Made by a program: the position numbers and the translations under genes. Positions 9,385 to 56,240 of a stretch of 64,000 nucleotides of DNA are shown here, in pieces (the stretch's first letter is position 1; each line of letters starts with the position of its first letter). The DNA lies in assembly GCA_029261055.1 (NCBI GenBank), contig JAJDCA010000015.1, forward strand, positions 19,998 through 83,997, written 5' to 3'. Source of the stretch: Candidatus Omnitrophota bacterium. Lineage in GTDB: Bacteria; Omnitrophota; Gorgyraeia; Zapsychrales; Zapsychraceae. The notes below the pieces were generated by a model. It had not been told where the DNA came from. It worked only from the letters and a program-made list of their open reading frames with translations, and searched no databases.

Positions 9385-9556
9385 CCTTGCTTTTTAAAAG
9401 AAGCAAAGTTGCAAGAAACAAGATGCAAAGAAAAAAGCAAAAATCAAAATCTTTTTTTGTTTCTTTACTTCTTACCTCTTGCCTTTTACTTCTTACTTTT
9501 CTATCTCTTAACTTTTTCTCTGCTTCTCATTTCTTTGCCTCTTACTTCTTTACTCA
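9385..9556. repeat. Purine-arm/pyrimidine-arm imperfect inverted-repeat element (AGAAGTAAGAG / CTCTTACTTCT family), copy 1.
   Basis: A purine-rich arm (aaagaagcaaagttgcaagaaacaagatgcaaagaaaaaagc...) is followed by a ~105-nt almost pure-pyrimidine tract (ctttacttcttacctcttgccttttacttcttac...). It lies between the tonB stop and the FTR1 start. Confidence 0.55.
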
Positions 9557-11280: not shown

Positions 11281-11416
11281 GCAGAGAAGTAAAGAAACAA
11301 GAAGTAGAGATAAAAACAAAAAATTAAATTCACTCTTCTACTTCTCTACTTCTTACTTCTCTGCATCTCTCCTTCTTATTTCTCTGCTTCTTGCCTCTCT
11401 ATTTCTTACTTCTTAA
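11281..11416. repeat. Purine-arm/pyrimidine-arm inverted-repeat element, copy 2, between the TonB-dependent receptor stop and the exbB start.
   Basis: gcagagaagtaaagaaacaagaagtagagataaaaac, then a loop, then tcttctacttctctacttcttacttctctgcatctctcc.... gcagagaagta (11281-11291) pairs with tacttctctgc (11356-11366). Confidence 0.55.
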
Positions 11417-21293: not shown

Positions 21294-22859
21294 ATGAAAA
21301 AAATATTTTATTCACTCACATTTATATTAACGCTGTCATTTGCTATAACAGCACAAGCTGAACAGCTTCAGCTTACAACCTACTATCCTGCTCCTTATGG
21401 AGCATACGACAAGCTACTTCTGGTTCCACGCACCCCTTTGAGCGGTAGCTGCCAGACAGGTACGCTTTATATGGAAGACATAGGTAATGGCGATGGAGAA
21501 ATAAGACTTTGTGATAAAGGAATCTGGGCTCCTATTTCAGGCCATTGGAAGCAAGAAAACGATGATATCTTTTTAGTCGATACAGCAACAAACCCTGATT
21601 TATTTGTAGGTATTGGAACCACTAATCCAGGTGCTCGCCTTTCGGTACAAGGCTACGGGAACAGCGCAACAACAGCCAGTCTCAATATGACAAACAGTGA
21701 TGGAAACAGCATACTGTATGCCAGAGATGACAGAAATGTCGGCATTGGAACAACCAACCCTTCAGCGAATTTAGATATTAATAACAATGGCGACCTTACA
21801 GGGGATCCTCTTGGCAGTAATTTATGGTTTCGCCTTTCCGGTGGATCCACCATTGATCACGGACGTATTTGGGCTCAATATTCCAACACTCAAGCTCCTA
21901 TTCTCGTTATGGAAGATGATGACGACCCTTCACGCATTCAATTTCAACAGGTAGGTACAGGCACAGAGTCAACGCCAGAGTTTGTCAGCTGGGTCGGTAT
22001 GGGGAAAAAGAATTCCAGTGACATTGCCCTTATGGGAGGAAAAGTCGGTATCGGTACCACTGACCCTTTAAGTAATCTGCACATCAAAGCGCCTTCGCCA
22101 TCTATAATTTTAGAAAGAGAAGATAATGCCCAAGCAGCTGCTCTAGCATTTTTTCCTAATGGGGCTATTTCCCCTACAAACATGTATTGGGCCATGGGGC
22201 TCAATCTAAATAGTAACCATTTTGTTATCGCTAATGATAGCAACACATCCTTTCCTAACAACATAAGATTTACCATTAAAGATGACGGTAAAGTCGCTAT
22301 GGGAGGAAATCATATTCCCCAAACTGATCTGCATATAAAGGGAAATGGTGTGCTTAGATTAGAAGATACTAGCGTAGCAATAGACTTCATAAATGAGAAT
22401 TCTGGTGACGATAATTTTAGTATTGCTTCTTGGGGCGGAAGTAAAGATATGCTCAGATTTCGATCTAACAAAGATGGAACTTGGGACGATATTGTCCAGT
22501 TTGAAAGTGATGGCGATGTATGGGTCGAAGATGATGTAACGGCCGATGAATACAAAACACATTCTGACGTTCGCCTTAAAAAAAATATCCTACCACTGAC
22601 AGACGCGCTCTCACGTGTGACACAGCTCCGTGGTGTTAACTACCAATGGAGAGATACCGATAAAGATCAAGGAAAAATTCAAATGGGTCTCATCGCTCAG
22701 GAAGTAGAAGAAGTATTTCCTGAAGTCGTTTCAACTGACGAAGACGGATTCAAATCTGTAGCCTATAGTAAACTTGTTGCTGCTTTGATCGAAGCTGTTA
22801 AAGAATTAAAAGCAGAAAATGATGATCTTAAATTGAGGATTGAGAAAATAGAAAAATAA
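21294..22859 (+). CDS. Secreted fibre/adhesin-like protein with IGTTxP-type repeats and a C-terminal S74 intramolecular-chaperone auto-processing domain (phage tail-spike type).
   Basis: Signal peptide MKKIFYSLTFILTLSFAITAQA. Repeated (V/I)GIGTT(N/D)P motifs. The C-terminal ~125 aa (HSDVRLKKNILPL...GLIAQEVEEVFPEVV...LIEAVKELKAENDDLKL) match the conserved core of the peptidase S74 chaperone domain, spanning roughly 22485..22856. Confidence 0.65.
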   Translation: MKKIFYSLTFILTLSFAITAQAEQLQLTTYYPAPYGAYDKLLLVPRTPLSGSCQTGTLYMEDIGNGDGEIRLCDKGIWAPISGHWKQENDDIFLVDTATNPDLFVGIGTTNPGARLSVQGYGNSATTASLNMTNSDGNSILYARDDRNVGIGTTNPSANLDINNNGDLTGDPLGSNLWFRLSGGSTIDHGRIWAQYSNTQAPILVMEDDDDPSRIQFQQVGTGTESTPEFVSWVGMGKKNSSDIALMGGKVGIGTTDPLSNLHIKAPSPSIILEREDNAQAAALAFFPNGAISPTNMYWAMGLNLNSNHFVIANDSNTSFPNNIRFTIKDDGKVAMGGNHIPQTDLHIKGNGVLRLEDTSVAIDFINENSGDDNFSIASWGGSKDMLRFRSNKDGTWDDIVQFESDGDVWVEDDVTADEYKTHSDVRLKKNILPLTDALSRVTQLRGVNYQWRDTDKDQGKIQMGLIAQEVEEVFPEVVSTDEDGFKSVAYSKLVAALIEAVKELKAENDDLKLRIEKIEK

Positions 22860-31345: not shown

Positions 31346-34300
31346 TTATCTCTGCAACACACGCCCTCCTAGAAGACGCCCTTCAGTTATCGGAGATGTT
31401 CGCTGTGAAATATTTCCATTTCTAAAATTTGTTTGCTGAATCCATGCTGATCCTACATCTAATTCATTCCATGTCCTAGTAAAACTTTTTGTATTACCAA
31501 AATATGTTTTAAAATGGCCATTTTGTCTATATGTAGTTTCTCTGTGGTATTCTGCACGATATATTCCAGCGCTCAATGATGTTAATCCGGGGGCTTGAAT
31601 TGTCCCAACATTTTTCCAATTTCCGACTTTAACTGTTTGAATGTGAGAATCTCCAACCCAACTGCCGATGACATTATAAAATTTATGTACAATCAATTCA
31701 TATTTTTTATTCAAATACCCTCCAGGATGAAATGAATCATTTGCAACAAATCCTATGGCGGCTGATACACCACCTAATTTTGCTCCGTCTCCAAAATTAC
31801 CTCCGGTTACTGAGGAAAGGCTTCCACCGATAACGGCCCCTACAATCGAACGACGAGCAAAATTTCCTGAAAATTGAGAAAAAGTATCATTAGTCGTTGT
31901 TTGTAGAAATGGTATCCTTTGCCCGGCTAATTGCGCAACCCCTGCACTCACTCCGCCTATTAAGGCGCTTATTCCTGGGTCGCCACCTAAAATTGTTGTA
32001 TTAATCCCTCCTGATATTGCGCCGCCTATCGTATGCGCAGAAATCTGGGCTGAGCCACTTAATCCTAAATCACCTATGCCTCCAAATATCAACCCACTTA
32101 TAGCTCCCGTTAGAAATCCATCTCCTATATCCCCACCTGTTGCCGCAGCTGTGGCGCCTCCAATGAGAGATCCAAAGAATGCACTTTTAAATAAACCCGC
32201 AAAAAAACTAAAGAGTGCAAAGTTTCCACTGGGATCAACCAAATTAATCGGATTATTATGGACGTAAGTATACCTATTAAATGTTTGTGGATTTTCAGGA
32301 TACGGCACAATTGTATCTGACGTTATAAATCTTCCAATAGATGGATCGTAATAGCGGGCTCCGTAGTAATATAACCCTGCTTCATCGTCGAAGGGTTTCC
32401 CGGTAAAATAGTACAACGCTGTTTCCTGATCATTACCATATTTTTCATGTGTGGCAAAACCACCGTATGGTAGGTACTCGATGAGTTCCTTCTTAGTTCC
32501 TGTATCATCTGTGAGAATATTGGTGCCGCCTAAATGGTCGGAGTGGTAGTATAAAACTTTGTTCCAGGAAACAGAGGCAATTCTTGTATCACCAAGAAAG
32601 ATGTATTGGATTGGACGATTATTGGTTTCCTCGTACATCGTTCCGATATAGATGGTTTCGGTCGTTGTGCTTGTGTCATTTGAAGTCATGTTAAAGAATG
32701 ACATTTTGTTGTGGACAAGATACCCACCGGCAAAGTAGTTGTGATGCTGGTCGACTTCGATGTTATATACCCTTACCGCGGATTGTGTGGTAATTTTTTC
32801 GATTTTTTCAATACTCGCATCCGTTAGATCTAGGCTCAGAAGTTTATCTTCAACAGATAGCTTGCCAATTTCACGCCATTCTCCTTGTGAATAGAATTGG
32901 TGATTGTCCGTCACACGTAAAGTATCATTAATGATTAAATATTCATCAGCAAATTCTCCATTAAAGAAATTCGTCACTGTTGATATAACCTTCTCTCCTG
33001 TACGCTCATTAAAACTCATAACAGCATCACCGATTTGTATCTCTTCAATCGATTTTGTACGCCCATCCGCCATCAAAACAGGTGTTCCTGCTAGAAAACA
33101 CGTGTTATTTCCTGATGGTGTTCCATGCCCGACACCATTTTCAAATGTTACTTTCTTCGTACGTCCTCCATCACCATCATATTTATATTGGGCAATAAGC
33201 ACCCCTGCCTTTTTTACTTCTGTCAGAAGGTTTCCAATATCATAGGTATAATTGATACTGACACCATTTTTAATCTTTGCTGTCATATTACCGTTGGCAT
33301 CATAGGTATAGATCTCGGTGGTGGCACCATCCGTCCGCGATGTCACTGCATGCGGGCCAGCACTGTTTTGACCGTAGGTATATGTAAACCCATCTTTCTG
33401 AATAATATTCCCGATGGTATCATAGGAATACGTCTTGGTGCCGTACGCTTCCCCTACGGCTTGCGTCAAACGACTTAAGGCGTCGTATTGGAAATTTTGT
33501 GTGGCCGTATGGATATTATCAACAATAGACCCCACATTACCCACTGCATCATAAGTATATGAAAAATCTTGTAAAACGCTATTATCTGTACTACTTGTTT
33601 TTACTTGTAGTAACCGTAAATTTAATGGATCGTAGGTATTGCTGGTTATGACACCATTGCCATATTCAATTTGTGTGATCTGCCCATTAACATTATATTT
33701 TATATTTCTTACAAATGAAGTTGATGCAATAGTTCCTGCCACTACATCAATATTTACTACAGCCACATTACTATCTAATTTTCCATCGTTTACCTTAAAA
33801 ATAAAATTATCTTTACCAAGATAATCTACATTTGGTGTATACATTAATTCGGGCGCTGTTCCTGATATTTTGCCATTCGTTGGGAATGTTACAATACTAT
33901 ATGTTAATACATCGTTATCTGCATCATTGCCAGTTAATGTAATAGGTAAAGTACCATTCATATTAATGGTTAAACTGCTTTGATCATTAGCGACTGGAGG
34001 CTCATTGGTTTGAGGTGGACTTACTAATTGAATTATGTCAGAAATTTCACTGGAGCTTAGAGCATCATTGTATACACGCACATCGTCAATACTGCCTTTA
34101 AAATAAATTCCATTACGTCTACCATTAAAAATATCTGCTTCTGAACCATCGCCAATATAGCCATACCGAGTTACGCCGTTCCCAAGTTTCACATTAGTGC
34201 TATAAGCATCACTTTGACTGTCTAGTACACCATCAACATAAATCTTTTTATCATTAACTTGACTAGCATCAAACACCCCGCACACATGATGCCATTGGCC

Positions 34301-37300
34301 GTCATCGACTCGGACGGAACTCGCCATATCATGAATCGCACTTCCCTCACCTCGTGTATCCCAAGAGATTTTACCGATATCTTCTGGTGCATTATGAAAG
34401 TTAATCCCCAATGACCAATACTCACTTCGATCATAATCTACTATTGTTTGTCGTGAAGAAGAACTTGTATTGATCCACGCACAGGTTGTTATTTTATTAA
34501 TTTCCCCAGCAACATTGTAACTTAGATTATTTATCGCTACATAATCGTTCGTGCCATCAAAATCTAATCCATTATTAATTTTTCCAGAAACCCAAGCAGC
34601 ATTCGTCATATTAAACAACGTGCCATTATTTCCATTTCCTGTTGCATCATTAGCATTATTCCCACTTGTTTCATCAAAATTCCAATGACCTATGAATGTA
34701 TTAATTGATGTAGTTGTTAATACATCTAATCTGATTTTTACTACATTACTATCTGCCGTGCCATCATTCACCTTAAATGTAAAACTGTCTGCTCCTACAT
34801 AATTCAAATTTGAACTATATATTAAATTTGGAGCTACTCCTGATAAACTTCCATTCGTTGGTTGAGTTATTACAACATACGTTAATGTATCTCCATCTGC
34901 ATCACCACCTGTTAGTGTTATAGCTAAATCTGTGCCTTGATTGGTTGTCAATCCATTCTGACTATTTGCCGTTGGCGCTGTATTATCTGGTGACACTATT
35001 TTAAAGCTCACCGCTGTTTCTGATTTAAAAGAATCGTTAAAAAGTATTCTCACTTCGTAATCCCCGGGAGGTAATCCAGAGTCAAATGCAATTCTCCCAT
35101 TGATAATTCCTGTGGTGCCGGTTTTTGTTCCATCTGTATAATACCATCCCAAGTTACTAGTATTCGCTGATCCAGCAGAAAACAACCCTATCCAGTCACT
35201 TGAATTCGCTAAAGCATTAAAAAAAGTCACTGTGATGGCCTCATTAGGGGCATATGTAGTTTTATTGATAAAAAGTAATGGCGGGTTTGCTCCAACGATA
35301 AAAGATTCTTTTGATTCTACTTCAAAAGAATTATTAGAAAACATTCTTGTCTCATATACACCATCAACGTTTAATCCATTATTAATTTTCGTAGAAACCT
35401 GATCAGTATTCGTCATATTAAACAACGTACCATTATTCCCATTTCCTGTCGTATCGGCAGCATTGTTCCCACTTGTTTCATCGATTTGTCTCTGAGCAAT
35501 GTAATCCTCTATGCTAGAAGGTGGTATGATATTATCACTAGGCCCAAAAGATGGAATATATCCAGGTGCAGCATTGAAAATATTACGATTTACAATGCGA
35601 AGATTATCCATACTCCCATTTAAATTTTCATAACTACCTCCATGAGGCCCTTCCCCAATGTAAAGCCCTCCCATATAATTAAACGTATTTTCAGTCTGCC
35701 GATACCCCGTCTGTTTACCATCTAAATAAAGTCCATATTTATCCCCCACTTTAACTAAAGCTACATGATGCCATTCATTATCAGTAATTTTGCCACCTTG
35801 TACGGAAATAATACGGTTAAAATTTATTTCTGCAGAAAATTCTAATTTATCGCGGTGCCCCAATTGCCATTCATTTGAACTATTAGATTTATGAACCACA
35901 TAATAATTTGGACTTACAAGGTCTCTATGCTTAACCCAGAGGTCAATGGTCCAGTCTTGAATGGGTGATGCAACAATATCCCAGTCAGGACTATCATCAA
36001 TGTGTAGAAAAGTTTTACTATTAAATGAAAGGCTAGTGCCTGAGAATTTTCCATCTGTAAAATCTAATTCTGGATTCTTATGCGGTATTATTGTGTGCCT
36101 CTTAGATGTATCCGTAAGCGCTGCGTCTATATTTTGCCCATCAAAAAGTAAAAGCAATTTTGTTTCTGGAAACAAAGGAACGGGTGGAGGTTGCGGGGTA
36201 GCATTTCTTTGATTCGAAGTTGGACCATCCACTTGCCCATTATATGCGGAAACCACAAAATAATACGTTGTCCCATTATTTACTTCAGCAACAACAAAAT
36301 TCGTTGTATTCCCAACATCGATTATATTTATCTTATTATTCTCAGAAGTTCCGTATTTAATTTTATAGCCTTCTGCATTATTGACACTGGTCCAACCCAA
36401 GCTTATATTTTTATCCCTACCAACAGAAACATTCAATGTTGGTGCATCTAAAACTATTGTGTTTACTTCATTTGAATTTTGACTTTCTGTTTGAATATCA
36501 TACGCTATAACTACAAAATAGTACGTAAGTCCGCCACTTAACCCAGTAACATTAAAGCTATGGACATTACCTACATCAATTATTTTTATATAACTTCCTT
36601 TGGAGGTTCCGTATTTAATTTTATAGCCTTCTGCATTATCGACACTGGTCCAATCTAAGCTAACGCCCTGATTTTCTACAACTACGGTATTCAAAACTGG
36701 AGGATCTATTATAGGTGGTGCTGGTATGATTTGTTGATTAGAAATTTCTACTACCTGTCCCGCAGCATTATATCCATAATACATATTTTTTGTATTTGGA
36801 TACTGTATTTTTACAATCGAATTTAGTGCATCATAATCTCGTTGGACATTATAAGCCTGATTATTAATTTTTTTTATTGATTGAATTTCTCTCCCCAAAG
36901 GATCATATATAAACTGAACATCACCTTTAGTATAATCGGCTTGTGTTAACTTTCCTTTTGAATGAGACACAGATGCATCATCATAGGTATAATTAACATC
37001 CAGATCTCCTCCATCCGTCTTATTTACAAGGCGATTTAAAGCATCGTAGGTAAATGTAATCTTTTGTCCTTTGGCGTCCATTTGTTCAATAAGGTTGCCG
37101 TTAAGATCATACTCGTACGTCCAAATCCCCATGTCTGGATCATCCATTTTTATTTTACGCCCAAGTTTGTCATATGTAATGTTGGTCGTATTACCCTGTT
37201 GATCTTGTGTTTGGATTAAATTACCAGAGATATCATAGGTATACTGTGTGGTCGCATAGAGAGTAAAAGGTTCCATGGGATAAAAATTTGAATCACGCCC

Positions 37301-43683: not shown

Positions 43684-45969
43684 ATGTGGATGAAATGGGT
43701 TCCTTGGCGATTTATTATTCAGAATGCGGCGAGGAAGAATGGGTTTTTGGATCCGGTAGAGGTGTTTACGCGGTTGGAACGGTTTGCGCAGCCGTCGGAG
43801 GTTGCGGCCCCTATTCAATTGCTTCGGTCTGGCGTTGTTTTGCATGCGCGGGGTTTGGTCAATAGTCAGGCGATTCAGCATAATCTGGATTGGGTGTGGC
43901 CGTATTGGGTGGAACGTCAATTTAATCCGGAAGATAGTTCTTTTATTCCACGTGCTTTCTCGATTACGCATATTAATTTAACGCACCGAAATTGGACGGC
44001 CGTGGGTTTGCCGGATTGTGATGAGCTTCCTATTGTAGACCCACGTGGTTTGGTAACACCTTTTTTTGATGGGTGGTCGATTGATTGTTGGATGGTTGAT
44101 GAGGAGCGCAAGTATCTTCTTCCATCGCGCCTTGCTTCTGTGACGCAAAGTATTGATTTTAACAATGAAGTTATTGTGACAACAGATGCGAGGGCAGAAG
44201 GTAAACAGCTCACTTCAAAAGTTTCGGTTATCGGGGATGTGGTGGCGCCGGTTTGTCAAATCCAAATCGAAGGGACGAGTCAATCTAAACGAGGTTGGAT
44301 TGTTGTGGCGCTTAGGCCGTACAATCCTGAAGGGGTGAGTTTTATCCATGACGTCGAATTACTTTCGAATCATCGAGGCTGGAGAGTTAATGATAAACAA
44401 AATGTGAATTTTGATGTTATTCCAGATAAGCATGTTTTTTCTGATTATTTGCAAGGCGACGTGTTTAGTCATCTTTCTGAATCAGATGATCGTACGAAAA
44501 TACGATGTAAGGTGGGGCTAGCTACAGCAGCCGCACAATTTGAACTTTCGCCGAATAAATCCCGCAACATTACGCTCGCCATTCCTTTGAAGGGAAAACA
44601 GAATGTGGCCATCAAACAACAAACTTCCATTGAGAGTTGGGATGCAAGTTTGCAGGATGCCTGCCAGTTAAGTATTCCAGACGACAAAATTAAGTTTCTC
44701 TATGATGTTGCAGTAAGAACACTCGTCTTGCATTCTCCCGATGAAGTTTATCCCGGCCCGTACACGTACAAACGGTTTTGGTTTCGTGATGCGGCGTTCA
44801 TATTACATGCGATGTTGTGCATGGGGCTTAAAGATCGTGTCCGACGTGTGATGGATTTTTTTCCCTCCAAGCAGACGCTCAAAGGATACTTTCTTTCGCA
44901 AGAAGGTGAATGGGATTCTAACGGTGAAGCCTTGTGGATTATGGAAAAGTATTGTCGTATGACGGGTAACCCTCTTCCTGAATTTTGGCACAAGGCGGTT
45001 GATTTGGGTGGACGATGGATTATGCACAAACGATTGAAAGGACATCACAATACGCTTTGTGCAGGATTGTTTCCGCCGGGATTTAGTGCCGAACATTTAG
45101 GACCGAATGATTATTATTATTGGGATGATTTCTGGGGTGTGGCTGGTTTGAAGGCAGCGGGTTATTTAACAGAAACATTAGGTCATAAAAGCCGAGCGCA
45201 ATATTTTTGGGGTGAGGCCAAGCATTTTATGGATGACATTGAACAAAGCTTGTTTAAGGTAGTCGAACGCTTGGAACAATCCATCATACCGGCGTCACCT
45301 TATCGACGTATGGATGCCGGGGCCATTGGTTCAATCGTTGTCGATTATCCGCTTAAGTTGTGGCCAGCAAAGGATGCGCGGCTTACAAACACAATGGATT
45401 TTCTCCTGCAACATTGTTGTGTGAAGGGCGGATTCTTCCAGGACATGACGCATTCGGGGATTAATCCGTATTTGACATTACACATGGCGCAGGTGTTATT
45501 ACGCAGTGGAGACAATCGGTATTTTGATTTGATGCAGACCGTTGCTAAATTGGCATCCTCCACTGGCCAATGGCCCGAGGCGATTCATCCGATTACGTTG
45601 GGTGGATGCATGGGGGATGGGCAGCATGTCTGGGCGGCCGCGGAATGGATATTGATGATACGAAATTGCTTTGTGCGTGAGGAGGAGAATAGATTGATTC
45701 TGGGCTCAGGTGTTCCCAAAGTGTGGATCGGTCCAGGCAAGACAATTTCTTTCGGTCCTGTGCACACTGATTTTGGAACGTTGAATATGACAATTAAAAA
45801 GAGTGACGATGATGTCAATGTATGTTGGGAAGGGGAGTGGTTGAAGGAAGAACCGACAATTGAAGTGGCATTGCCGGGGTTTAGCAAGATCGTTGCGCAA
45901 CCCGGAACAACAAGGCTTGCGGTGAAGAAACAAGAAGCAGAGGTGCAAGAAGTAAGAGACAAGATGTAG
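43684..45969 (+). CDS. Six-hairpin glycosidase, GH15 (glucoamylase/trehalase)-like, with an N-terminal beta-sandwich domain.
   Basis: GPYTYKRFWFRDAAFILHAM resembles the GH15 YxYxWxRDAA motif. GEWDSNGEALW also fits. There is a strong RBS (aaggaggtcactATG). Confidence 0.5.
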   Translation: MWMKWVPWRFIIQNAARKNGFLDPVEVFTRLERFAQPSEVAAPIQLLRSGVVLHARGLVNSQAIQHNLDWVWPYWVERQFNPEDSSFIPRAFSITHINLTHRNWTAVGLPDCDELPIVDPRGLVTPFFDGWSIDCWMVDEERKYLLPSRLASVTQSIDFNNEVIVTTDARAEGKQLTSKVSVIGDVVAPVCQIQIEGTSQSKRGWIVVALRPYNPEGVSFIHDVELLSNHRGWRVNDKQNVNFDVIPDKHVFSDYLQGDVFSHLSESDDRTKIRCKVGLATAAAQFELSPNKSRNITLAIPLKGKQNVAIKQQTSIESWDASLQDACQLSIPDDKIKFLYDVAVRTLVLHSPDEVYPGPYTYKRFWFRDAAFILHAMLCMGLKDRVRRVMDFFPSKQTLKGYFLSQEGEWDSNGEALWIMEKYCRMTGNPLPEFWHKAVDLGGRWIMHKRLKGHHNTLCAGLFPPGFSAEHLGPNDYYYWDDFWGVAGLKAAGYLTETLGHKSRAQYFWGEAKHFMDDIEQSLFKVVERLEQSIIPASPYRRMDAGAIGSIVVDYPLKLWPAKDARLTNTMDFLLQHCCVKGGFFQDMTHSGINPYLTLHMAQVLLRSGDNRYFDLMQTVAKLASSTGQWPEAIHPITLGGCMGDGQHVWAAAEWILMIRNCFVREEENRLILGSGVPKVWIGPGKTISFGPVHTDFGTLNMTIKKSDDDVNVCWEGEWLKEEPTIEVALPGFSKIVAQPGTTRLAVKKQEAEVQEVRDKM

Positions 45970-46166
45970 AGAAGTAAGAGGTAGAGAGGCAAGAAGTAAA
46001 GAGATAAGAAGCAAAGAAGTAAGAGATAGAGGAGCAGAGAAGTAGAGAAGTGAGTAATTAAAAAATATGAATAATTTTCTATTTTGTTTTTTGCATCTTA
46101 CTTCTCTATTTCTCTACATCTTGCTTCTCAACTCTGCCTCTTGTTTCTTACATCTCTACTTCTCTT
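45945..46166. repeat. Purine-arm/pyrimidine-arm inverted-repeat element, copy 3 (~220 bp). It overlaps the last codons of the GH15-like gene.
   Basis: gaagcagaggtgcaagaagtaagagacaagatgtagagaagtaagaggtagagaggcaagaagtaaagagataagaag..., then a loop (aaaaaatatgaataattttctattttg), then ...catcttacttctctatttctctacatcttgcttctcaactctgcctcttgtttcttacatctctacttctctt. Confidence 0.6.
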
Positions 46167-46182
46167 AACAAGGCGGTGAAGA

Positions 46183-49100
46183 ATGAAAATTCTCATGATG
46201 ACCAACACATACACACCCATTGTCGGGGGGGTTGAGGCATCTATTCAGTCTCTGACGAGGCAACTCAAAGAAAAGGGACATGAGGTGGTGATTGTGGCGC
46301 CGTGTTTTGAAGCTATGCCTGAGCAGGAAGAGGGTGTTGTGCGTATTCCTGCGATTCAGAAATTTAATCATACCGATTTTTCGGTGAATTTGCCTATTCC
46401 GGGTTTATTAGAAAAATTGATGTTTGATTTTAAACCGGATATTGTGCATAGCCATCATCCATTTTTGATTGGCGACATGGCATTACGGTTAAGTGGTCAG
46501 TATGGCATACCGCTTATTTTTACGTATCACACGATGTATGAAGAATACATTCATTATCTTCCCTTTCAAAATAATATGATTCGGCGTTTTGTGATTGAAC
46601 TTTCAGCCGGTTATGCCAATCTTGCCGACCAGGTGATTGTTCCTACAAGAAGTGTGAGAGATATTTTGCATGCGCGTGGTGTGGATACGCCGATAGACAT
46701 TATTCCGACGGGGATTGATGTTAAGAAATTTTCTCAAGGGAAAGGTACGGCTATGCGTCAAAGTTTTAACATTCCGCGTGAGGCCTTTGTGATCGGACAT
46801 GTCGGGCGTTTAGCCCCTGAAAAGAATTTGGAATTTCTGGCTCATGCTGTAACAGAATTTTTAAAAGAAGATCAGAATGCTCATTTTTTACTCGTTGGTA
46901 AAGGGCCCTGCGAAAAAGTTGTTCAAGAAATATTTCATGCAAAAGGTATGGATGCGCGGATACATTGTAGCGGCGTTTTAAGGGATGCGGCGTTGGCGAA
47001 TGCGTATCATGTCATGGATATTTTTGCATTTACGTCTCAGACGGAAACACAAGGGCTTGTTTTGGCTGAGGCATTGGCTGCAGGTATTCCGGTTGTGGCG
47101 CTTGATGCCCCGGGTGTGCGGGATATTGTGAAAGATACTATTAATGGACGGATTATTCATGGGCAGGAGCGTGACACATTTGTGTCAACACTCATGGAAT
47201 GCCGGCAAAAATCTTCGACTGATTTTCAGGAAATGAAAAAAAATGCACAAAAAAGTATTCAGCATTTTTCCTGCGAAGAGACGGCACGGAATATTTTTAA
47301 AGTTTATGGCCAGGCAAAATTACAGAAAAAGAAAAGGCGTGAAATAGACAACAGCCTTTGGCAGATGACGATGCAGCGTATTAAGACGGAATGGAGTATG
47401 GTTAAGAATTTAGCTGACGCTTCAGAAGCGGCTTACAGCGAGACGGCGTTTGATATTAAAACGCCACGCCATGCCCCTCAAAATAATTGGATGTTACGAT
47501 TACGACGTTGGCTCAACACACATGAATGGTCGGCTCGGATTTTGAAGCTGTCGCAATCTACGGGGACAGAATCCAAGCCTGGGTTAATTATGATTCAGAT
47601 TGATGGTTTTTCAAAAACACAGTTTGAAAATGCATTAAAAAATAAAGAAATGCCGTTTTGTCAGGGGTTATTACATAAACAGCGATACAAAATTTATCCT
47701 TTTTTTACCGGCATGCCATCGACGACACCTTCTGTTCAAGGAGAGTTGTTTTATGGCGTTAAACAAATTGTGCCGGCGTTTTCGTATTTTGATCAACGTG
47801 CCCAGAAAGTTTTTACAATGTTTGATGGCGATGATGCGACGGAAATTGAACGGCGGCTGAAAGAACGTGGAGGGCCGGGATTACTCGAAGGGGGGAGTTC
47901 GTATTCGAATGTGTATGCCGGAGGCGCCAAAGAAGCACATTTTTGTGCCATATCCTTGGGTTTGGATAAAATTTGGAAGGATGTTAATCCTTTAAGTATC
48001 ATTCTTTTAGCCCTAACACATTTTGTGACACTCATACGTATTATTCTGCTGGTCAGTCTGGAGATGGTATTGGCGACGATGGATTTTATTTTTGGATTGA
48101 TTGACGGGGAAAATTTTCGAAAGGAATTTAAGTTCGTCTCAACGCGGGGGTTGATTTGTATTTTGTTGCGCGAATTGATTACGCTTGGCTCCAAGATTGA
48201 TATTGCGCGGGGTTTGCCTATTATTCATTTAAATTTTTTAGGGTACGATGAGCAGGCTCATCGAAGAGGGCCATCATCTAAGTTTGCCCATTGGGCGTTG
48301 AAAGGGATTGATTTATCCATTGCGGATATTTACAAAAATGCTCTGCAGTCAACGCGTCGGAATTATGATGTTTGGATTTATTCTGATCATGGACAGGAGG
48401 ATACATCTTCGTACATGATTGAGCATGGGATGTACGTATTTGAGGCGATCGAGAAACTTTATCGTCAGATGTACGGAATCTCATCTGAAAAGGGGTCGGT
48501 GCATACCGATTTTAGGGGGCACAACGGCTTAGCCGGGAAGCGCCGTGCTCAAACAACGACTCACGACGTTCGTCTAAACTGCGCGCGGCACTCCCCGGCT
48601 AAGCCGTTTAACGTGCCCCCTAAAATTGGTAGGCACCAAGGAGGATGCTCCAGTTTTCGAGAATGGCAGGAGCCACCGCAGCGGGGAATTCAATTTTCTC
48701 GTGCACGTTATTTAGGGAAGAGGTTTATTCAAAATGTTTTTACGTCGGAAAAAGTATTGGACCATGATGATATTAAAGTGACAGCGATTGGGCCGACCGG
48801 GAATATTTATTTAACCAAGGAATTGAATGAAGATGAAAATTTTTTGTTTGCCCGTAAACTTGTGCGGACATTAAAAATTCCTTTGGTATTTTTAAGGGAA
48901 GGACCTGGGAAAGTGCGCGCATTTAATAAACATGGTGAGTTTATTTTACCGGATCAGGCCAAAGAGGTTTTGGGGGAAGATCATCCTTATTTGAAAGAAG
49001 TCACGCAGGATTTGATTGCGGTGTGTCATCATGCCAGTGCAGGGACTTTTACATTTTCCGGTTGGCGGCCGCATAAAAAACCGGTTAGTTTTCCTATTGA

Positions 49101-50037
49101 AAATGGGGCGCATGCCGGGCCGGGGATTCGGGAGACGAATGCCTTTGCACTTATGCCGTCGGATATTGTGGCATTGCCATCAACGAGGGCGTATCTTCGT
49201 ACCATGGATTTGCGTGAATATGCCTTACAATTTTTGGGGAGGACAGCGCCAGAGAAAATTGATGCAGAAGTTTACATTTCTAAGAAAACAAACACAACTA
49301 AGAAAATACGGATTATGACCTACAATGTGCATAATTGTCAGGGGATGGATGGCAAAACGTCGCCTGAACGTATTGCGCGTGTGATTGCACGGCATGAACC
49401 GGATATTGTGGCTTTGCAAGAGTTGGATGTGAAGCGTCACCGGACAGGAGGTATTGATCAGCCGCATTTGATTGCGAAGCATTTAAAAATGATTTACCAT
49501 TTTCATCCTAATATTTGCATAGAAGAAGGGCTTTATGGCAATGCGATTTTAAGCCGTTATCCCATGAAGTTGATTTATGCTAGCCGTCTGCCCATATTAC
49601 CGGGACGCCCTGATTTAGAATTTCGTGGGGCTATTTGGGCGACTGTTGATGTGGAAGGAACAAGGGTTCAGATTTTTAACACACATTTGGGCCTACGGCC
49701 AAAAGAACAGTTACGACAAGCAGAGGCATTAGTCGGGGAAGATTGGCTGACACACTCAGCTTGTGATGGGCCAGTTATCCTTTGTGGTGATTTTAATGCC
49801 TTGCCTGGATCGTCCGTGGTACGCCGTATTACAGAAACTCTTCGTGATGCGCAGGTTGAACTAGATAATCATCGTCCTCATCCAACCTGGTTTAGCCCTT
49901 ACCCGCTAGGCCGCATCGATCATATCTTTATCAACCCGCAAATAGAAGTTACCCGAGCCCACGTCTCCAAGACCGCATTAGACAAAACCGCCTCCGACCA
50001 TCTGCCCTTGGTGGTGGATGTGATGGTTAAAAATTAA
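46183..50037 (+). CDS. Tri-domain protein: a GT4 glycosyltransferase, an alkaline-phosphatase-superfamily NPP-type phosphodiesterase, and an endonuclease/exonuclease/phosphatase (EEP) domain.
   Basis: GT4 N-terminus (MKILMMTNTYTPIVGGVEA... and the E-x7-E motif QTETQGLVLAEALAAG). A middle NPP-like region (IQIDGFSKTQFENAL...YPFFTGMPSTTPSVQGELFYG...HLNFLGYDEQAHRRGP...YSDHGQ). A C-terminal EEP (IMTYNVHNCQGMDGKTSPERIARVIARHEPDIVALQELD...CGDFNALPGS...DHIF). Confidence 0.7.
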   Translation: MKILMMTNTYTPIVGGVEASIQSLTRQLKEKGHEVVIVAPCFEAMPEQEEGVVRIPAIQKFNHTDFSVNLPIPGLLEKLMFDFKPDIVHSHHPFLIGDMALRLSGQYGIPLIFTYHTMYEEYIHYLPFQNNMIRRFVIELSAGYANLADQVIVPTRSVRDILHARGVDTPIDIIPTGIDVKKFSQGKGTAMRQSFNIPREAFVIGHVGRLAPEKNLEFLAHAVTEFLKEDQNAHFLLVGKGPCEKVVQEIFHAKGMDARIHCSGVLRDAALANAYHVMDIFAFTSQTETQGLVLAEALAAGIPVVALDAPGVRDIVKDTINGRIIHGQERDTFVSTLMECRQKSSTDFQEMKKNAQKSIQHFSCEETARNIFKVYGQAKLQKKKRREIDNSLWQMTMQRIKTEWSMVKNLADASEAAYSETAFDIKTPRHAPQNNWMLRLRRWLNTHEWSARILKLSQSTGTESKPGLIMIQIDGFSKTQFENALKNKEMPFCQGLLHKQRYKIYPFFTGMPSTTPSVQGELFYGVKQIVPAFSYFDQRAQKVFTMFDGDDATEIERRLKERGGPGLLEGGSSYSNVYAGGAKEAHFCAISLGLDKIWKDVNPLSIILLALTHFVTLIRIILLVSLEMVLATMDFIFGLIDGENFRKEFKFVSTRGLICILLRELITLGSKIDIARGLPIIHLNFLGYDEQAHRRGPSSKFAHWALKGIDLSIADIYKNALQSTRRNYDVWIYSDHGQEDTSSYMIEHGMYVFEAIEKLYRQMYGISSEKGSVHTDFRGHNGLAGKRRAQTTTHDVRLNCARHSPAKPFNVPPKIGRHQGGCSSFREWQEPPQRGIQFSRARYLGKRFIQNVFTSEKVLDHDDIKVTAIGPTGNIYLTKELNEDENFLFARKLVRTLKIPLVFLREGPGKVRAFNKHGEFILPDQAKEVLGEDHPYLKEVTQDLIAVCHHASAGTFTFSGWRPHKKPVSFPIENGAHAGPGIRETNAFALMPSDIVALPSTRAYLRTMDLREYALQFLGRTAPEKIDAEVYISKKTNTTKKIRIMTYNVHNCQGMDGKTSPERIARVIARHEPDIVALQELDVKRHRTGGIDQPHLIAKHLKMIYHFHPNICIEEGLYGNAILSRYPMKLIYASRLPILPGRPDLEFRGAIWATVDVEGTRVQIFNTHLGLRPKEQLRQAEALVGEDWLTHSACDGPVILCGDFNALPGSSVVRRITETLRDAQVELDNHRPHPTWFSPYPLGRIDHIFINPQIEVTRAHVSKTALDKTASDHLPLVVDVMVKN

Positions 50038-50085: not shown

Positions 50086-50469
50086 ATGAGCAAAATTAAT
50101 TTTACAGTCGAAGAAAAAGAAAATTTGTACATCTTGCGGATGCGGGGGGATATTACGACGGAGAGTTTGCCTGAATACCGTCAAGTGGTGGATGATTTGA
50201 TGAAGGATTTGGATGTGCAAAATAAAAAAGATCTCAGCTTTATTGTAGATTATGACGGTGTGGGTGAGGTGGATAGTGCGGCTGTGGCAAATATTTTGGA
50301 GCGTTTAACAAACGCGGTCAGGACTGATCACAGGGTTGTGTTTATTAATGTTCCTGAGAAATTTAGTAATTTAGTCGATATTCTTCAAGTCGGTGATTCG
50401 ATAAAGATTTACGATTCGGAGCAACAAGCTATTGAGGAACTAAGGAAGATAGGAGAAGCAGAGAAGTAA
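50086..50469 (+). CDS. STAS-domain anti-sigma-factor antagonist (SpoIIAA-like).
   Basis: 127 aa with a STAS fold pattern (LYILRMRGDITTESLPEYRQVVDD...VVFINVPEKFSNLVDILQVGDSIKIY). Confidence 0.7.
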   Translation: MSKINFTVEEKENLYILRMRGDITTESLPEYRQVVDDLMKDLDVQNKKDLSFIVDYDGVGEVDSAAVANILERLTNAVRTDHRVVFINVPEKFSNLVDILQVGDSIKIYDSEQQAIEELRKIGEAEK

Positions 50470-50665
50470 GAAACAAGAAGTAGAGAAGTAAGATTCAAGA
50501 AGCAGAAAATTAGAGAGGAAAAACACAAGAAGCAAAGCGGAAAGAATCAGAGAATCAGAGAAGTAGAGAATTCAAAAAATTCAATAGCGGATGGCTAAAG
50601 TTTTCCGAATGCATTCTTTTTTGCTTTTTCTCTACATCTTGTTTCTTACATCTATGCTTCTTTTA
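50446..50665. repeat. Purine-arm/pyrimidine-arm inverted-repeat element, copy 4. It overlaps the STAS gene 3' end.
   Basis: aggagaagcagagaagtaagaaacaagaagtagagaagtaagattcaagaagcagaaaattagagagg..., then a loop, then ttttgctttttctctacatcttgtttcttacatctatgcttctttt. Confidence 0.55.
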
Positions 50666-54816: not shown

Positions 54817-56190
54817 ATGCGAAAAATTAATTCTTTATCTTCCTCCCCGACATCTGCGAATCTGTTTGAAGGAACTGTATGTGCACAACTTTTTAAGGAG
54901 TCTCCTTTAAGTCATCGCATGCGGCCGCAGACGCTGGATGAATATGTCGGGCAGCGCCATGTTTTAGGTGAAGATAAATTGTTAACCCGCGCAATTCAAG
55001 CAGATCGCATTACGTCTTTAATTATTTATGGCCCTCCCGGCGTTGGTAAAACAACCCTCGCTCAGTGCATCAGTGCAAAAACGCAAGCCGCGTTTGAATG
55101 CATTAACGCGGTTTCTTCCAATGTAGAAGAGATGCGTAAAATTCTTGCGGCTGCAGCTAATCGTCGATTAACATGTCAGAAAAAAACGATCCTTTTTATT
55201 GACGAAATTCATCGTTTTAATAAGGCACAGCAAGATATTTTGATGCCGGATTTAGAAGAAGGAAACATTATTCTTGTCGGCGCCACGGTATTTAATCCAT
55301 TTTTTTCTTTGATTGGACCATTATTATCCCGATCATTGGTGTTTGAATTGAATCCTCTCACGCAGGAAGATATTTTAAAAATTTTAAATAATGCCTTGGA
55401 GGATCAAGAAAAGGGGTTAGGGGCGTTCTCGATACAAGCGGATGAGGGGGCCTTAAATTTTATTGCGGATGTTTGTGATGGTGATGCGCGTAAAGCCTTG
55501 AATGCTTTGGAAGTCGGGTGCTTAACAACGCCAAAAGATAAGCAAGGGAAGGTTGTTTTTAATTTAGATGTCGCGCAAGAATCCATCCAAAAGAAACAAG
55601 TGAATTATGATAAAAAAGGGGATGCGCATTATGATACAGCCTCGGCCTTTATCAAATCGATGCGTGGTTCTGATCCTGATGCGGCGCTGTATTGGATGGC
55701 TAAAATGATTTATGCGGGAGAAGATCCTCGGTTTATTGCACGACGCATTTGTATCTGTGCAGCAGAAGACGTGGGTAATGCCGATCCACAAGCCCTTGTA
55801 CTGGCGAATTCTGCGTTTCAAGTTTCCGAGTTTATTGGGATGCCTGAGGCACGCATTCCTTTGGCGCAGGCCGCTATTTATGTGGCGTGTGCACCCAAGT
55901 CGAATGCCTCGTATTTAGGGATTGACAAAGCCATTGATGCCGTGAAGAATAAGCGCGTCCAGGAAGTACCCGTGTATCTTAAAGATTCTTCTTATCGCGG
56001 AGCCAAGAAAATGGGCCACGGTCAAGGCTACAAATATGCGCATAATTATCAAGGGCATTATGTTGATCAAGAATACATCTCTGTGAAAGAAACTTTTTAT
56101 GAACCGACAGATATGGGTTATGAACAGAAAATAAAAGCAAGACTTGGTCAAAAGAAGCAAGAGGTAAAGAGGCAAGAAACAGAGAAGTAA
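54817..56190 (+). CDS. rarA: Replication-associated recombination protein A (AAA+ ATPase).
   Basis: Walker A GPPGVGKTTLA, Walker B ILFIDEIHRFN, and a MgsA C-terminal domain. Confidence 0.85.
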   Translation: MRKINSLSSSPTSANLFEGTVCAQLFKESPLSHRMRPQTLDEYVGQRHVLGEDKLLTRAIQADRITSLIIYGPPGVGKTTLAQCISAKTQAAFECINAVSSNVEEMRKILAAAANRRLTCQKKTILFIDEIHRFNKAQQDILMPDLEEGNIILVGATVFNPFFSLIGPLLSRSLVFELNPLTQEDILKILNNALEDQEKGLGAFSIQADEGALNFIADVCDGDARKALNALEVGCLTTPKDKQGKVVFNLDVAQESIQKKQVNYDKKGDAHYDTASAFIKSMRGSDPDAALYWMAKMIYAGEDPRFIARRICICAAEDVGNADPQALVLANSAFQVSEFIGMPEARIPLAQAAIYVACAPKSNASYLGIDKAIDAVKNKRVQEVPVYLKDSSYRGAKKMGHGQGYKYAHNYQGHYVDQEYISVKETFYEPTDMGYEQKIKARLGQKKQEVKRQETEK

Positions 56191-56240
56191 AGATTTGTTT
56201 TATTTCTGCCTCTTGTTTCTGTGTTTCTGTGCTTCTTTAA
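56141..56240. repeat. Purine-arm/pyrimidine-arm inverted-repeat element, copy 5. Compact at ~100 bp. It supplies the last ~15 codons of rarA.
   Basis: aagaagcaagaggtaaagaggcaagaaacagagaagtaaag, then a loop (atttgttttatt), then tctgcctcttgtttctgtgtttctgtgcttcttt. Confidence 0.55.

Follow-up and report, generated by a model that had tools for sequence, protein, structure and literature searches.

The window analysed here is a stretch of 64,000 nucleotides from a Candidatus Omnitrophota bacterium (assembly GCA_029261055.1, contig JAJDCA010000015.1, positions 19,998 to 83,997). It encodes a 761-residue protein resembling glycoside hydrolase family 15 (GH15), followed by a 1,284-residue protein that joins a family 4 glycosyltransferase (GT4), a nucleotide pyrophosphatase/phosphodiesterase (NPP)-like domain and an endonuclease/exonuclease/phosphatase (EEP) domain. 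We found that this pair is the fused form of a collinear gene cassette, in which a gene for DedA, GtrA or Sm_multidrug_ex is followed by genes for the GH15-like protein, the GT4 and an NPP-like+EEP protein. The cassette is almost certainly a conserved functional unit, and its function is probably directed at lipids. As a tentative proposal, whose chances we put a little below even, the cassette would swap phosphate head groups of membrane lipids for sugars at the cytoplasmic face of the inner membrane.

A conserved cassette and its fused form

Gene calling placed the two open reading frames (ORFs) at 43684-45969 and 46183-50037 of the window, both on the plus strand, exactly as in an earlier analysis of the letters and their translations (the sequence-only reading), and every motif quoted there is present in the two translations. 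That reading had also taken the longer protein to be a single gene, with an architecture it did not know as described. Queried against about 5.8 billion non-redundant proteins, the fused protein recovered more than 120 clusters of 1,200-1,290 residues with the same three domains, 42-63% identical over their full length and originating from independent assemblies of Omnitrophota and Planctomycetota. The window matches an assembly from run SRR15505515 and has its closest relative in an Omnitrophota metagenome-assembled genome (MAG); a few homologues of about 990 residues lack the EEP domain. Because more than 120 clusters from independent assemblies share the architecture, an unnoticed frameshift is excluded; an ORF-continuity test across loci agrees. 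A frameshift or mis-assembly origin of the 1,284-residue ORF was accordingly rejected, and the single-gene call stands. Full-text searches of the literature returned no description of the cassette or the fusion (a paper on the lipocone superfamily that mentions Omnitrophota concerns other proteins), in agreement with the sequence-only reading, to which no such fusion was known. Database names of the members are "hypothetical protein", "glycosyltransferase" and "endonuclease/exonuclease/phosphatase family protein", and no cassette member appears to have been characterised.

To map the distribution of the system, we scanned GTDB r232, at one genome per species, with an alignment of the NPP-like+EEP region and obtained at least 588 confirmed matches, from which 80 loci spanning about 10 phyla were fetched. 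About 60 of these 80 loci keep GH15-like, GT4, NPP-like and EEP in this order on a single strand, mostly with 4-nt overlaps between genes, and the ordered loci belong to Omnitrophota, Planctomycetota, Desulfobacterota, Gamma- and Alphaproteobacteria, Nitrospirota and Lentisphaerota. The NPP-like and EEP domains are fused in every locus (80/80). The GT4 joins them in 11 loci, all labelled Omnitrophota or Planctomycetota, and is a separate, abutting gene in about 62; in most phyla the genes adjoin without being joined, and the GT4 fusion is confined to particular lineages. A search with the middle domain alone identified a protein of about 800 residues, NPP-like+EEP without GT4, as the dominant architecture (2,778 matches in Desulfobacterota, Elusimicrobia, Pseudomonadota and others). 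Cultured carriers include Congregibacter variabilis IMCC43200, Rheinheimera pacifica and R. hassiensis.

The sequence-only reading had proposed that the two window genes act as a pair. Their adjacency bears this out, since it recurs in about 60 of the 80 loci, usually with a 4-nt overlap, but the real unit is a cassette of three or four genes. The most tightly coupled members are the GH15-like and GT4 genes, which overlap by 4 nt, and in Omnitrophota the fused gene immediately follows the GH15-like gene, after an 11-nt gap or with a 4-nt overlap. A split operon in a Pseudomonadota MAG (L011) illustrates the unfused state: DedA/VTT, GH15-like (55% identity to the window protein), GT4 (46%) and NPP-like+EEP genes follow one another with 4-nt overlaps. 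In about 31 loci the gene before the GH15-like one encodes DedA/VTT; elsewhere a fused GtrA domain or Sm_multidrug_ex is found, so that three unrelated small polytopic membrane proteins are interchangeable at the first position of the cassette. DedA and GtrA relatives have been implicated in translocating lipids, polyprenyl-phosphate or lipid-linked sugars. All-against-all clustering of ORFs across 81 loci revealed no other conserved neighbour, only the cassette genes and spurious antisense ORFs.

Several loci depart from this layout. Those of Sumerlaeota and Nitrospinota contain GT4 and NPP-like+EEP genes with no GH15-like gene within 5-7 kb, and two further loci (L009, L010) encode NPP-like+EEP with neither a GT4 nor a GH15-like gene nearby; in L010 the gene overlaps one with a weak match to CDP-alcohol phosphatidyltransferase. 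In another Omnitrophota MAG (GCA_026387175.1; L007:6694-16952), the order is GH1, GtrA-GH15-like, PP-binding+PlsC acyltransferase, GT4+alpha/beta-hydrolase and AMP-binding+PP-binding+acyltransferase. Here enzymes that handle acyl chains, including one resembling an acyl-ACP synthetase, take the place of NPP-like+EEP beside a GT4 that is 50% identical to that of the window. Separately, complete DedA – GH15-like – GT4 – NPP-like+EEP cassettes, 42-60% identical to the bacterial ones, occur on contigs binned as Halobacteria (L062, L090; also P0226), where they could reflect mis-binning or inter-domain transfer.

Domains of the fused protein and its GH15-like partner

The three-domain composition named by the sequence-only reading was borne out by Pfam, AlphaFold (AF2) models and Foldseek comparison of those models with the PDB. 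Residues 5-380 match PF13439 (E = 1.7e-38, 132.8 bits against a cut-off of 28.5) and PF00534 (E = 1.1e-27, 97.1 bits against 26.4), and the columns of the motifs GRLAPEKN (residue 208) and E288-x7-E296 are nearly invariant in 64 sequences. On these sequence features, namely the Pfam domains, the E-x7-E pair and the phosphate-binding motif, the N-terminal domain is assigned to CAZy family GT4 with a retaining GT-B fold. We then ranked NCBIfam families for the window GT4 together with 10 cassette GT4s from other phyla. The best match of the window domain is alpha-monoglucosyl-diacylglycerol synthase (Mgs; NF049988, 189.5 bits) and the second is GlcNAc-phosphatidylglycerol synthase (NF053787), both aligned end to end. 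In the other ten, Mgs always ranks first (133-161 bits) and GlcNAc-phosphatidylglycerol synthase second or third, so that lipid glycosyltransferase families outscore soluble-acceptor ones, including MshA, in 11 of 11 GT4s. PimA is also a strong match, and a weak one is seen to the model "GT4 in conflict systems" (PF20706, 5e-8). The conserved helix of the linker that follows the domain persists at the C-terminus of stand-alone GT4 orthologues, with alignments running through it (L008, L007, L011). Orthologues 50-52% identical over more than 410 residues are found either stand-alone (L008) or fused to an alpha/beta-hydrolase (L007).

The middle domain is recognised by Pfam over residues 683-752 (PF01663, Phosphodiest; 26.2 bits, cut-off 23) and by no NCBIfam model. 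Its AF2 model (mean predicted local distance difference test score, pLDDT, 83.6) is most similar to phosphonoacetate hydrolase (PhnA; 1ei6, E = 9e-11), followed at E values up to 1e-7 by Xanthomonas NPP, ENPP1, 3, 5, 6 and 7 and autotaxin (7mw8, 5egh and 5tcd among the entries). These matches have a probability of 1.0, identities of about 11% and TM-scores to the target of 0.57-0.62. The motifs IQIDGF (D474), FTGMPSTTPS (T515), GYDEQAHRRGP (D689, H693) and YSDHGQ (D735, H736) supply the expected catalytic positions. In an alignment of window residues 401-1040 with 63 homologues (64 sequences), D474, T515, D689, H693, D735, H736, E973 and H977 are invariant. A domain-only profile further aligns Xanthomonas NPP (E = 0.002), pairing D474 with D54, D689 with D210, H693 with H214, D735 with D257 and H736 with H258. 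The core fold, the two-metal ligands and PF01663 thus assign this domain, as judged from sequence and model, to the NPP/PhnA branch of the alkaline phosphatase (AP) superfamily, and the AP-superfamily residues noted from sequence proved to be conserved in all 64 sequences.

A hydrophobic stretch had been noticed in the middle of the protein, and we located it at residues 600-641, with a maximal 19-residue Kyte-Doolittle score of 2.59; elsewhere the protein has just a weak, buried GT4 helix. AF2 models the insert as a hairpin of two long helices (pLDDT about 93-96). The insert stays hydrophobic in 36 of 36 family members tested (maximal 19-residue score 1.69-2.61, mean 2.2), while its sequence varies. 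It cannot cross the membrane just once, since one folded domain would then be split in two. We propose that the modelled hairpin serves as a re-entrant or monotopic membrane anchor, or as a lipid-binding or hydrophobic lid.

The C-terminal domain can be placed in the EEP superfamily by its sequence, with matches to PF03372 (E = 1.1e-27, 97.6 bits against a cut-off of 24.5, residues 1045-1273) and to the PGAP2IP-type PF23226 (2.6e-13). Its motifs YNVH (1047), LQE (1078), NTHL (1166), GDFN (1202), RIDH (1244) and SDHLP (1271) form a complete and nearly invariant set. The best NCBIfam match is the PRK05421 model (NF003842), named "endonuclease/exonuclease/phosphatase family protein", which we take to cover Escherichia coli YbhP. 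The closest stand-alone EEPs, 46-49% identical, are encoded on the megaplasmid of Sinorhizobium meliloti (L092:4448-7744) and on Rhizobium etli p42f (L093:4504-7777), where they adjoin a phospholipase D (PLD) gene and a gene with a UPF0104/lysylphosphatidylglycerol-synthase domain. In a planctomycete, genes for a PLD and a stand-alone EEP likewise follow the fused gene. The plasmid search returned stand-alone EEP relatives only and no NPP-like+EEP protein.

The upstream protein had been compared with GH15 glucoamylases and trehalase-type six-hairpin hydrolases on the basis of its WFRDAAF motif (residues 366-372). The fold part of this comparison was upheld. The AF2 model (mean pLDDT 82.8) comprises a beta-sandwich (residues about 130-300), an (alpha/alpha)6 barrel (about 315-665) and a C-terminal beta domain (about 665-750), preceded by a Trp-rich, highly conserved N-terminus (residues 1-110) of low model confidence; a hydrophobic segment is absent from the protein. 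Its top PDB matches are the GH15 structures 9ju0 (dextran dextrinase), 1ug9 and 1lf6 (E about 2e-14 to 6e-14), including glucodextranase and bacterial glucoamylase, at about 11% identity and TM-scores to the target of up to 0.61. GH94 cellobiose/chitobiose phosphorylases and GH65 phosphorylases follow nearly tied, all at 9-12% identity. Since GH15, GH94 and GH65 are so close, no GH family can be assigned from structure. Other structural relatives are cyclic beta-1,2-glucan synthase, 2-O-alpha-glucosylglycerol phosphorylase, kojibiose phosphorylase and 9lb6, a PDB entry described as trehalose 6-phosphate phosphatase.

Sequence comparison gave a different answer from the fold. Pfam, including the GH15 model PF00723, does not match the protein, and the best NCBIfam model (TIGR01577, GH15-type) reaches E = 1.1e-5 and 24.2 bits against a cut-off of 820.7. 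A family profile searched against PDB sequences retrieved 1lf6 alone at E = 0.88, and hhalign of that profile to an Aspergillus glucoamylase sequence gave no alignment. Among 10 distant family members, Pfam found no GH-family or other informative match, one of them showing weak, sub-threshold matches to TPR_19 and the GtaA six-hairpin model. As every one of the GH15 sequence tests failed or fell far below threshold, GH15 membership was rejected: the 761-residue protein is GH15-like in fold only.

The GH15-like family is large. It comprises 3,263 clusters at 50% identity, 765 of them with E below 1e-30; about one third of the listed homologues carry an N-terminal GtrA domain, and the protein is the best-conserved component of the cassette, at 51-64% identity across phyla. 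In an alignment of 49 sequences, the invariant residues concentrate in the six loops preceding the inner barrel helices (W366, R368, D369, E409, D411, E470, R541, R542, D544, E632 and D645). By loop position and motif resemblance (SAEH, WPEA), E470 and E632 are a possible acid/base pair.

A proposed role in membrane lipids and its alternatives

We infer the lipid nature of the substrates, the sequence of steps and their chemistry from the domains and their company in the cassette. The NPP-like domain, held at the membrane by its hairpin, would cleave the phosphodiester of a glycerophospholipid through Thr515 and the two-metal site. The EEP domain would contribute a second phospholipase C-type activity or act as a finishing phosphatase, so that NPP-like+EEP together would strip the phospho-head group and leave diacylglycerol. 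The GT4 would then move a sugar from a nucleotide sugar onto diacylglycerol, and the cytoplasmic GH15-like protein may trim, transglycosylate or reverse the sugar head group. Where present, DedA, GtrA or Sm_multidrug_ex would carry the lipid product or substrate across the membrane. Fusion of the GT4 to NPP-like+EEP would channel diacylglycerol from cleavage to glycosylation. This specific route from phospholipid through diacylglycerol to glycosyl-diacylglycerol is put forward with caution, as its chances lie clearly below even.

Six lines of evidence point towards membrane lipids: the GT4s rank Mgs first and GlcNAc-phosphatidylglycerol synthase second or third; the hydrophobic hairpin is conserved in the NPP-like domain; putative flippases replace one another at the first cassette position; one variant carries an alpha/beta-hydrolase and acyltransferases (L007); NPP-like+EEP occurs without a GT4 (L009, L010); and the nearest stand-alone EEPs sit in clusters with phospholipase D and flippase-like genes. 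ENPP6, the alkaline sphingomyelinase ENPP7 and autotaxin, all relatives of the middle domain, cleave lipid phosphodiesters.

Other observations weigh against head-group replacement. The GT4 scores (133-190 bits) are far under the equivalog cut-offs (400 for Mgs, 480 for GlcNAc-phosphatidylglycerol synthase), and the soluble-acceptor GT4s MshA, BshA and sucrose-phosphate synthase are significant matches too. The NPP-specific Asn, which contacts the phosphoryl group and separates diesterases from monoesterases, was not located in the middle domain, and the hairpin could form a buried lid instead of anchoring the protein in the membrane. The match of the EEP domain to PRK05421 reaches 50 bits against a cut-off of 144 and aligns the C-terminal 90 residues alone. 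Two phosphoesterase domains exceed the need of a single phospholipase C step, and the proposal does not convincingly explain the GH15-like protein, whose structural relatives act on soluble glucans and disaccharides. In this window, no flippase-type gene lies upstream of the cassette. Finally, no Pho box (CTGTCAT-N4-CTGTCAT, at least 12 of 14 positions) was found upstream of 20 mostly proteobacterial loci, the nearest being one site at 11/14, a negative that is weak because the consensus differs between taxa.

The same genes could instead build a decorated lipid. The GT4 would glycosylate a phospholipid or diacylglycerol, the NPP-like domain would move phosphoethanolamine or phosphoglycerol from a donor phospholipid via its Thr onto the sugar, the EEP and GH15-like proteins would edit the product, and the membrane protein would flip it, yielding a glyco(phospho)lipid loosely resembling glycosylphosphatidylinositol (GPI). 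LtaS, EptA, OpgB and the GPI ethanolamine-phosphate transferases are head-group transferases of AP-superfamily type, and their chemistry is that of a Thr nucleophile with a two-metal site. The PGAP2IP/CWH43-type match of the EEP (PF23226, 2.6e-13), the strong GT4 matches to GlcNAc-phosphatidylglycerol synthase and PimA, and the flippase-type partners all fit, and each of the four enzymes receives a job. PF01663 presumably also matches eukaryotic GPI ethanolamine-phosphate transferases, and PIG-A is, we assume, a GT4. We nonetheless consider such transfer unlikely: the known bacterial transferases are periplasmic, sulfatase-type proteins (PF00884) with multi-span N-terminal membrane domains, none of them appears in the top 50 structural matches, which are NPP/PhnA hydrolases, and the occurrence of NPP-like+EEP with no GT4 or GH15-like gene nearby is unexpected for a dedicated decorating enzyme. 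Assembly of a lipid-primed glucan or lipoglycan is an alternative to which we give a slim chance. Here the GT4 would make a glucosyl-lipid primer, the GH15-like protein would elongate or cyclise it by transglycosylation, in the manner of dextran dextrinase or of the (alpha/alpha)6 and GH94 domains of cyclic glucan synthase, NPP-like+EEP would add or remove phospho-substituents and the membrane protein would export the product. The transglucosidase dextran dextrinase (9ju0) as top structure match of the GH15-like protein, the further match to cyclic beta-1,2-glucan synthase, the tight coupling of the GH15-like and GT4 genes, and a degree of GH15-like conservation suited to a central catalytic role all speak for it. 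However, the GH15-like step is dispensable, because the Sumerlaeota and Nitrospinota loci lack the gene within 5-7 kb; no conserved polymer-export machinery (Wzx/Wzy, ABC or synthase-type) lies beside the cassette, and the catalytic residues of the GH15-like protein are not assignable.

The sequence-only reading had suggested a phosphorylated glycoside, either a compatible solute or a glycolipid head group, made with the logic of sucrose-phosphate synthase/phosphatase. The glycolipid option is the one now favoured. In the soluble version, the GT4 would join the sugar of a nucleotide sugar to a phosphorylated acceptor, a phosphoesterase would dephosphorylate the product, as the synthase/phosphatase pairs for sucrose-phosphate, trehalose-phosphate and glucosylglycerol-phosphate do, and the GH15-like protein would degrade the resulting compatible solute, a stress protectant. 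This would agree with the GT4 matches to MshA, BshA and sucrose-phosphate synthase, with the glucoamylase, glucosylglycerol and kojibiose phosphorylase and 9lb6 relatives of the GH15-like protein, with the HSP20, Usp and HtrA genes that flank some loci, and with a small-molecule enzyme, phosphonoacetate hydrolase, as best structure match of the middle domain. We judge it quite unlikely because the GT4 is of lipid type, with lipid families scoring higher in all 11 cases, because the conserved hairpin would have no role, because the cassette includes three interchangeable polytopic membrane proteins, putative flippases, of which one is joined to the GH15-like protein, and because NPP-like+EEP exists alone. 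Moreover, two phosphoesterases would serve one phosphate, no HAD-type phosphatase occurs in the fused protein or the conserved cassette, and the alpha/beta-hydrolase and acyltransferase variant is left unexplained. A role in nucleotide or nucleic-acid processing, in which the NPP-like domain would work as a nucleotide pyrophosphatase, and the EEP as a nuclease or nucleotide phosphatase, on UDP or nucleotide sugars connected with the GT4 reaction or in an inter-genomic conflict system, is very improbable. It takes its appeal from the Pfam names, the weak PF20706 match (5e-8) and the toxin-antitoxin pair and integrase just upstream in the window. Against it, flanking genes vary from one genome to the next and the mobile ones are particular to this window, joining a cytoplasmic nucleotide-sugar pyrophosphatase to a glycosyltransferase would serve no purpose, and the hairpin and flippase partners would go unexplained. 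PADLOC defence models match neither protein, and an anti-phage defence system was rejected on that ground.

Head-group replacement on membrane lipids thus remains our preferred reading. The fusion serves as a Rosetta stone, in which a lipid-type glycosyltransferase is physically tied to two phosphoesterases, and it therefore suggests a definite function, open to testing, for each of four protein families: one without any Pfam or NCBIfam model, one that Pfam recognises over only 70 residues, and two that are generically annotated. The cassette also provides a genetic handle on transport by particular DedA and GtrA proteins, and the cultured carriers Congregibacter variabilis IMCC43200 and Rheinheimera make experiments feasible.

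Window surroundings and related systems

Features of the two genes are collected below.

Coordinates of features in the window (aa, residues of the respective protein; a dot denotes no strand)
Feature	Position	Strand	Basis
GH15-like six-hairpin protein, 761 aa	43684..45969	+	ORF call; AF2 and Foldseek
W366-F-R368-D369-A370 motif, first inner-helix loop of the barrel	44779..44793	+	invariant alignment columns
Long imperfect hairpin repeat filling the 213-nt gap between the two genes	45935..46170	.	inverted repeats; RNA fold
GT4 / NPP-like / EEP fusion, 1,284 aa, single continuous frame	46183..50037	+	Pfam; homologues; ORF-continuity test
Predicted GT4 domain (GT-B, retaining), aa 1-380	46183..47322	+	PF13439, PF00534, PF13692
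Linker, aa ~381-454, conserved W...EW helix	47323..47544	+	BLASTP; AF2 helices of low-to-moderate confidence
Predicted NPP/PhnA-type AP-superfamily domain, aa ~455-1030	47545..49272	+	AF2; Foldseek; invariant residues
Predicted metal ligand D474	47602-47604	+	invariant; aligns with Xanthomonas NPP D54
Predicted nucleophile T515	47725-47727	+	position and invariance
Hydrophobic helical hairpin, aa 600-676, insert between nucleophile and D-x3-H motif	47980..48210	+	hydropathy; AF2
Predicted metal ligand D689	48247-48249	+	invariant; aligns with D210
Predicted metal ligand H693	48259-48261	+	invariant; aligns with H214
Predicted metal ligands D735-H736	48385-48390	+	invariant; align with D257/H258
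Variable low-confidence loop in NPP-like domain, aa ~771-833	48493..48681	+	pLDDT <50; variable columns
Predicted metal ligand H977 (last)	49111-49113	+	position and invariance
Predicted EEP domain, aa 1041-1284	49303..50034	+	PF03372, PF23226

The repeat between the two genes folds into a hairpin of -83.8 kcal/mol (z = -5.3) and encodes the last few codons of the GH15-like ORF. It is a genome-specific insertion, separate from the enzyme system, and stands where other genomes have the 4-nt overlap. Related intergenic hairpin copies lie at about 9414-9550, 11293-11413, 50469-50650 and 56153-56220 of the window. Their layout is a purine-rich arm of AGAAGTAAGAG/AGAGAAGTAGAG-like units followed by a pyrimidine-rich complement that ends just before the next ribosome-binding site. 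When up to 3 mismatches are allowed, the 18-mer TCTCTACATCTTGYTTCT has 16 occurrences where 0.13 would be expected, and all of them lie at gene ends.

Mobile or selfish genes immediately precede the cassette: an rve_3 integrase (40337-41617, minus strand) and a ParE toxin (42711-43013, minus) that overlaps a probable ParD antitoxin of 88 residues (43010-43276, minus). The integrase and ParDE occupy the position held elsewhere by DedA, GtrA or Sm_multidrug_ex. Further upstream on the minus strand (31346-40057), a 2,903-residue protein combines RHS repeats, TcdB middle/N region, FG-GAP, laminin-G, Big_9/cadherin-like and fn3 domains with a C-terminal pretoxin-HINT domain, an architecture of the polymorphic-toxin type. 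A cyclic di-GMP-I riboswitch (RF01051; 21038-21121, plus strand, 66.5 bits, E = 8e-11) precedes an ORF (21294-22859) of 521 residues, whose sole Pfam match is a C-terminal Peptidase_S74 intramolecular-chaperone domain. Positions 1-6000 of the window differ from the rest in a lower G+C content (about 0.35) and a strongly negative AT skew (-0.26 to -0.33), and no listed ORF of at least 150 residues begins before 5828.

As for regulation, genes for HSP20 (up to six in L004), DnaJ, Usp and HtrA/DegP-type proteins adjoin the fused or NPP-like+EEP gene in several loci (L004, L005, L009, L043). Such stress-gene flanks in unrelated genomes hint at stress-linked expression. A search for heat-shock, sigma-54 and sigma-E promoters upstream of 53 loci gave one weak sigma-32-like match.

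Every domain of the fused protein can be placed, by sequence comparison, in a known superfamily, and none reaches the cut-off of a characterised family. Like GH15, GH65 and GH94 (clan GH-L in the case of GH15), the upstream protein has a beta-sandwich and an (alpha/alpha)6 barrel with acidic loops before the inner helices, and its W366-x-R368-D369 resembles the W-x-R-D substrate-binding motif of GH15. Unlike GH15, it is cytoplasmic, has its own conserved 110-residue N-terminus and is fused to GtrA in many genomes. The GT4 shares the GT-B fold, E-x7-E and GRLAPEKN-type motifs with Mgs and GlcNAc-phosphatidylglycerol synthase, but it continues into a conserved C-terminal helix and an additional 900 residues of phosphoesterase domains. 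The middle domain has the core fold, Thr nucleophile and six metal ligands of the NPP branch; unlike NPPs, it is cytoplasmic without a signal peptide, has two inserts, a hydrophobic hairpin of 75 residues and a disordered loop of 60, and in the cassette is always followed by an EEP domain. Sucrose-phosphate synthase/phosphatase fusions likewise place a glycosyltransferase and a phosphoesterase in one polypeptide, yet their phosphatases are of the HAD type and their substrates soluble, whereas the window protein has NPP and EEP types, a hydrophobic insert and membrane-protein partners.

At the level of systems, the kind represented here would be lipid head-group replacement with glycolipid synthesis, with a modest chance of a new class of lipid. 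In the boldest version, which we regard as unlikely, the cassette would encode an unrecognised, phylogenetically widespread route to a bacterial membrane glycolipid of a new class, for example a glycosylated phospholipid or diacylglycerol whose sugar is trimmed and decorated with a phospho-head group drawn from a second phospholipid. It would form a loose counterpart of early GPI synthesis (GT4, AP-superfamily transferase, PGAP2IP-type EEP), with the GH15-like protein founding a new family of lipid-sugar glycoside hydrolases or transglycosidases and DedA, GtrA and Sm_multidrug_ex acting as dedicated flippases. We know of no function for E. coli YbhP. In enterobacteria its gene shares an operon with clsB and ybhN (ybhP-clsB-ybhN), and YbhN has been proposed to translocate phospholipids (bioRxiv 10.1101/2022.03.11.483950). 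This operon sets an EEP beside a phospholipid enzyme and a flippase-like gene, and the rhizobial PLD, UPF0104 and EEP clusters parallel it; unlike in both, the cassette EEP is the C-terminal domain of a larger protein, and its partner is NPP-like rather than a PLD.

Remodelling of phospholipid to glycolipid head groups is a major adaptation in oceans and in pathogens, and to our knowledge it is known mainly from the PlcP-Agt pair. There, the phospholipase C PlcP and the GT4 Agt convert phospholipids into glycosyl-diacylglycerols in SAR11, Roseobacter and other marine bacteria (PMC4796936). With no Pho box found upstream of the 20 cassette loci scanned, a phosphate-starvation trigger of the PlcP-Agt type is not supported. 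The cassette would share the logic of that pair, namely removal of the head group to give diacylglycerol, which a neighbouring GT4 glycosylates. PlcP, however, is a metallophosphoesterase with a calcineurin-like fold, an enzyme that the cassette lacks, whereas the cassette uses fused NPP-type and EEP domains and adds a GH15-like protein and a flippase-type membrane protein.

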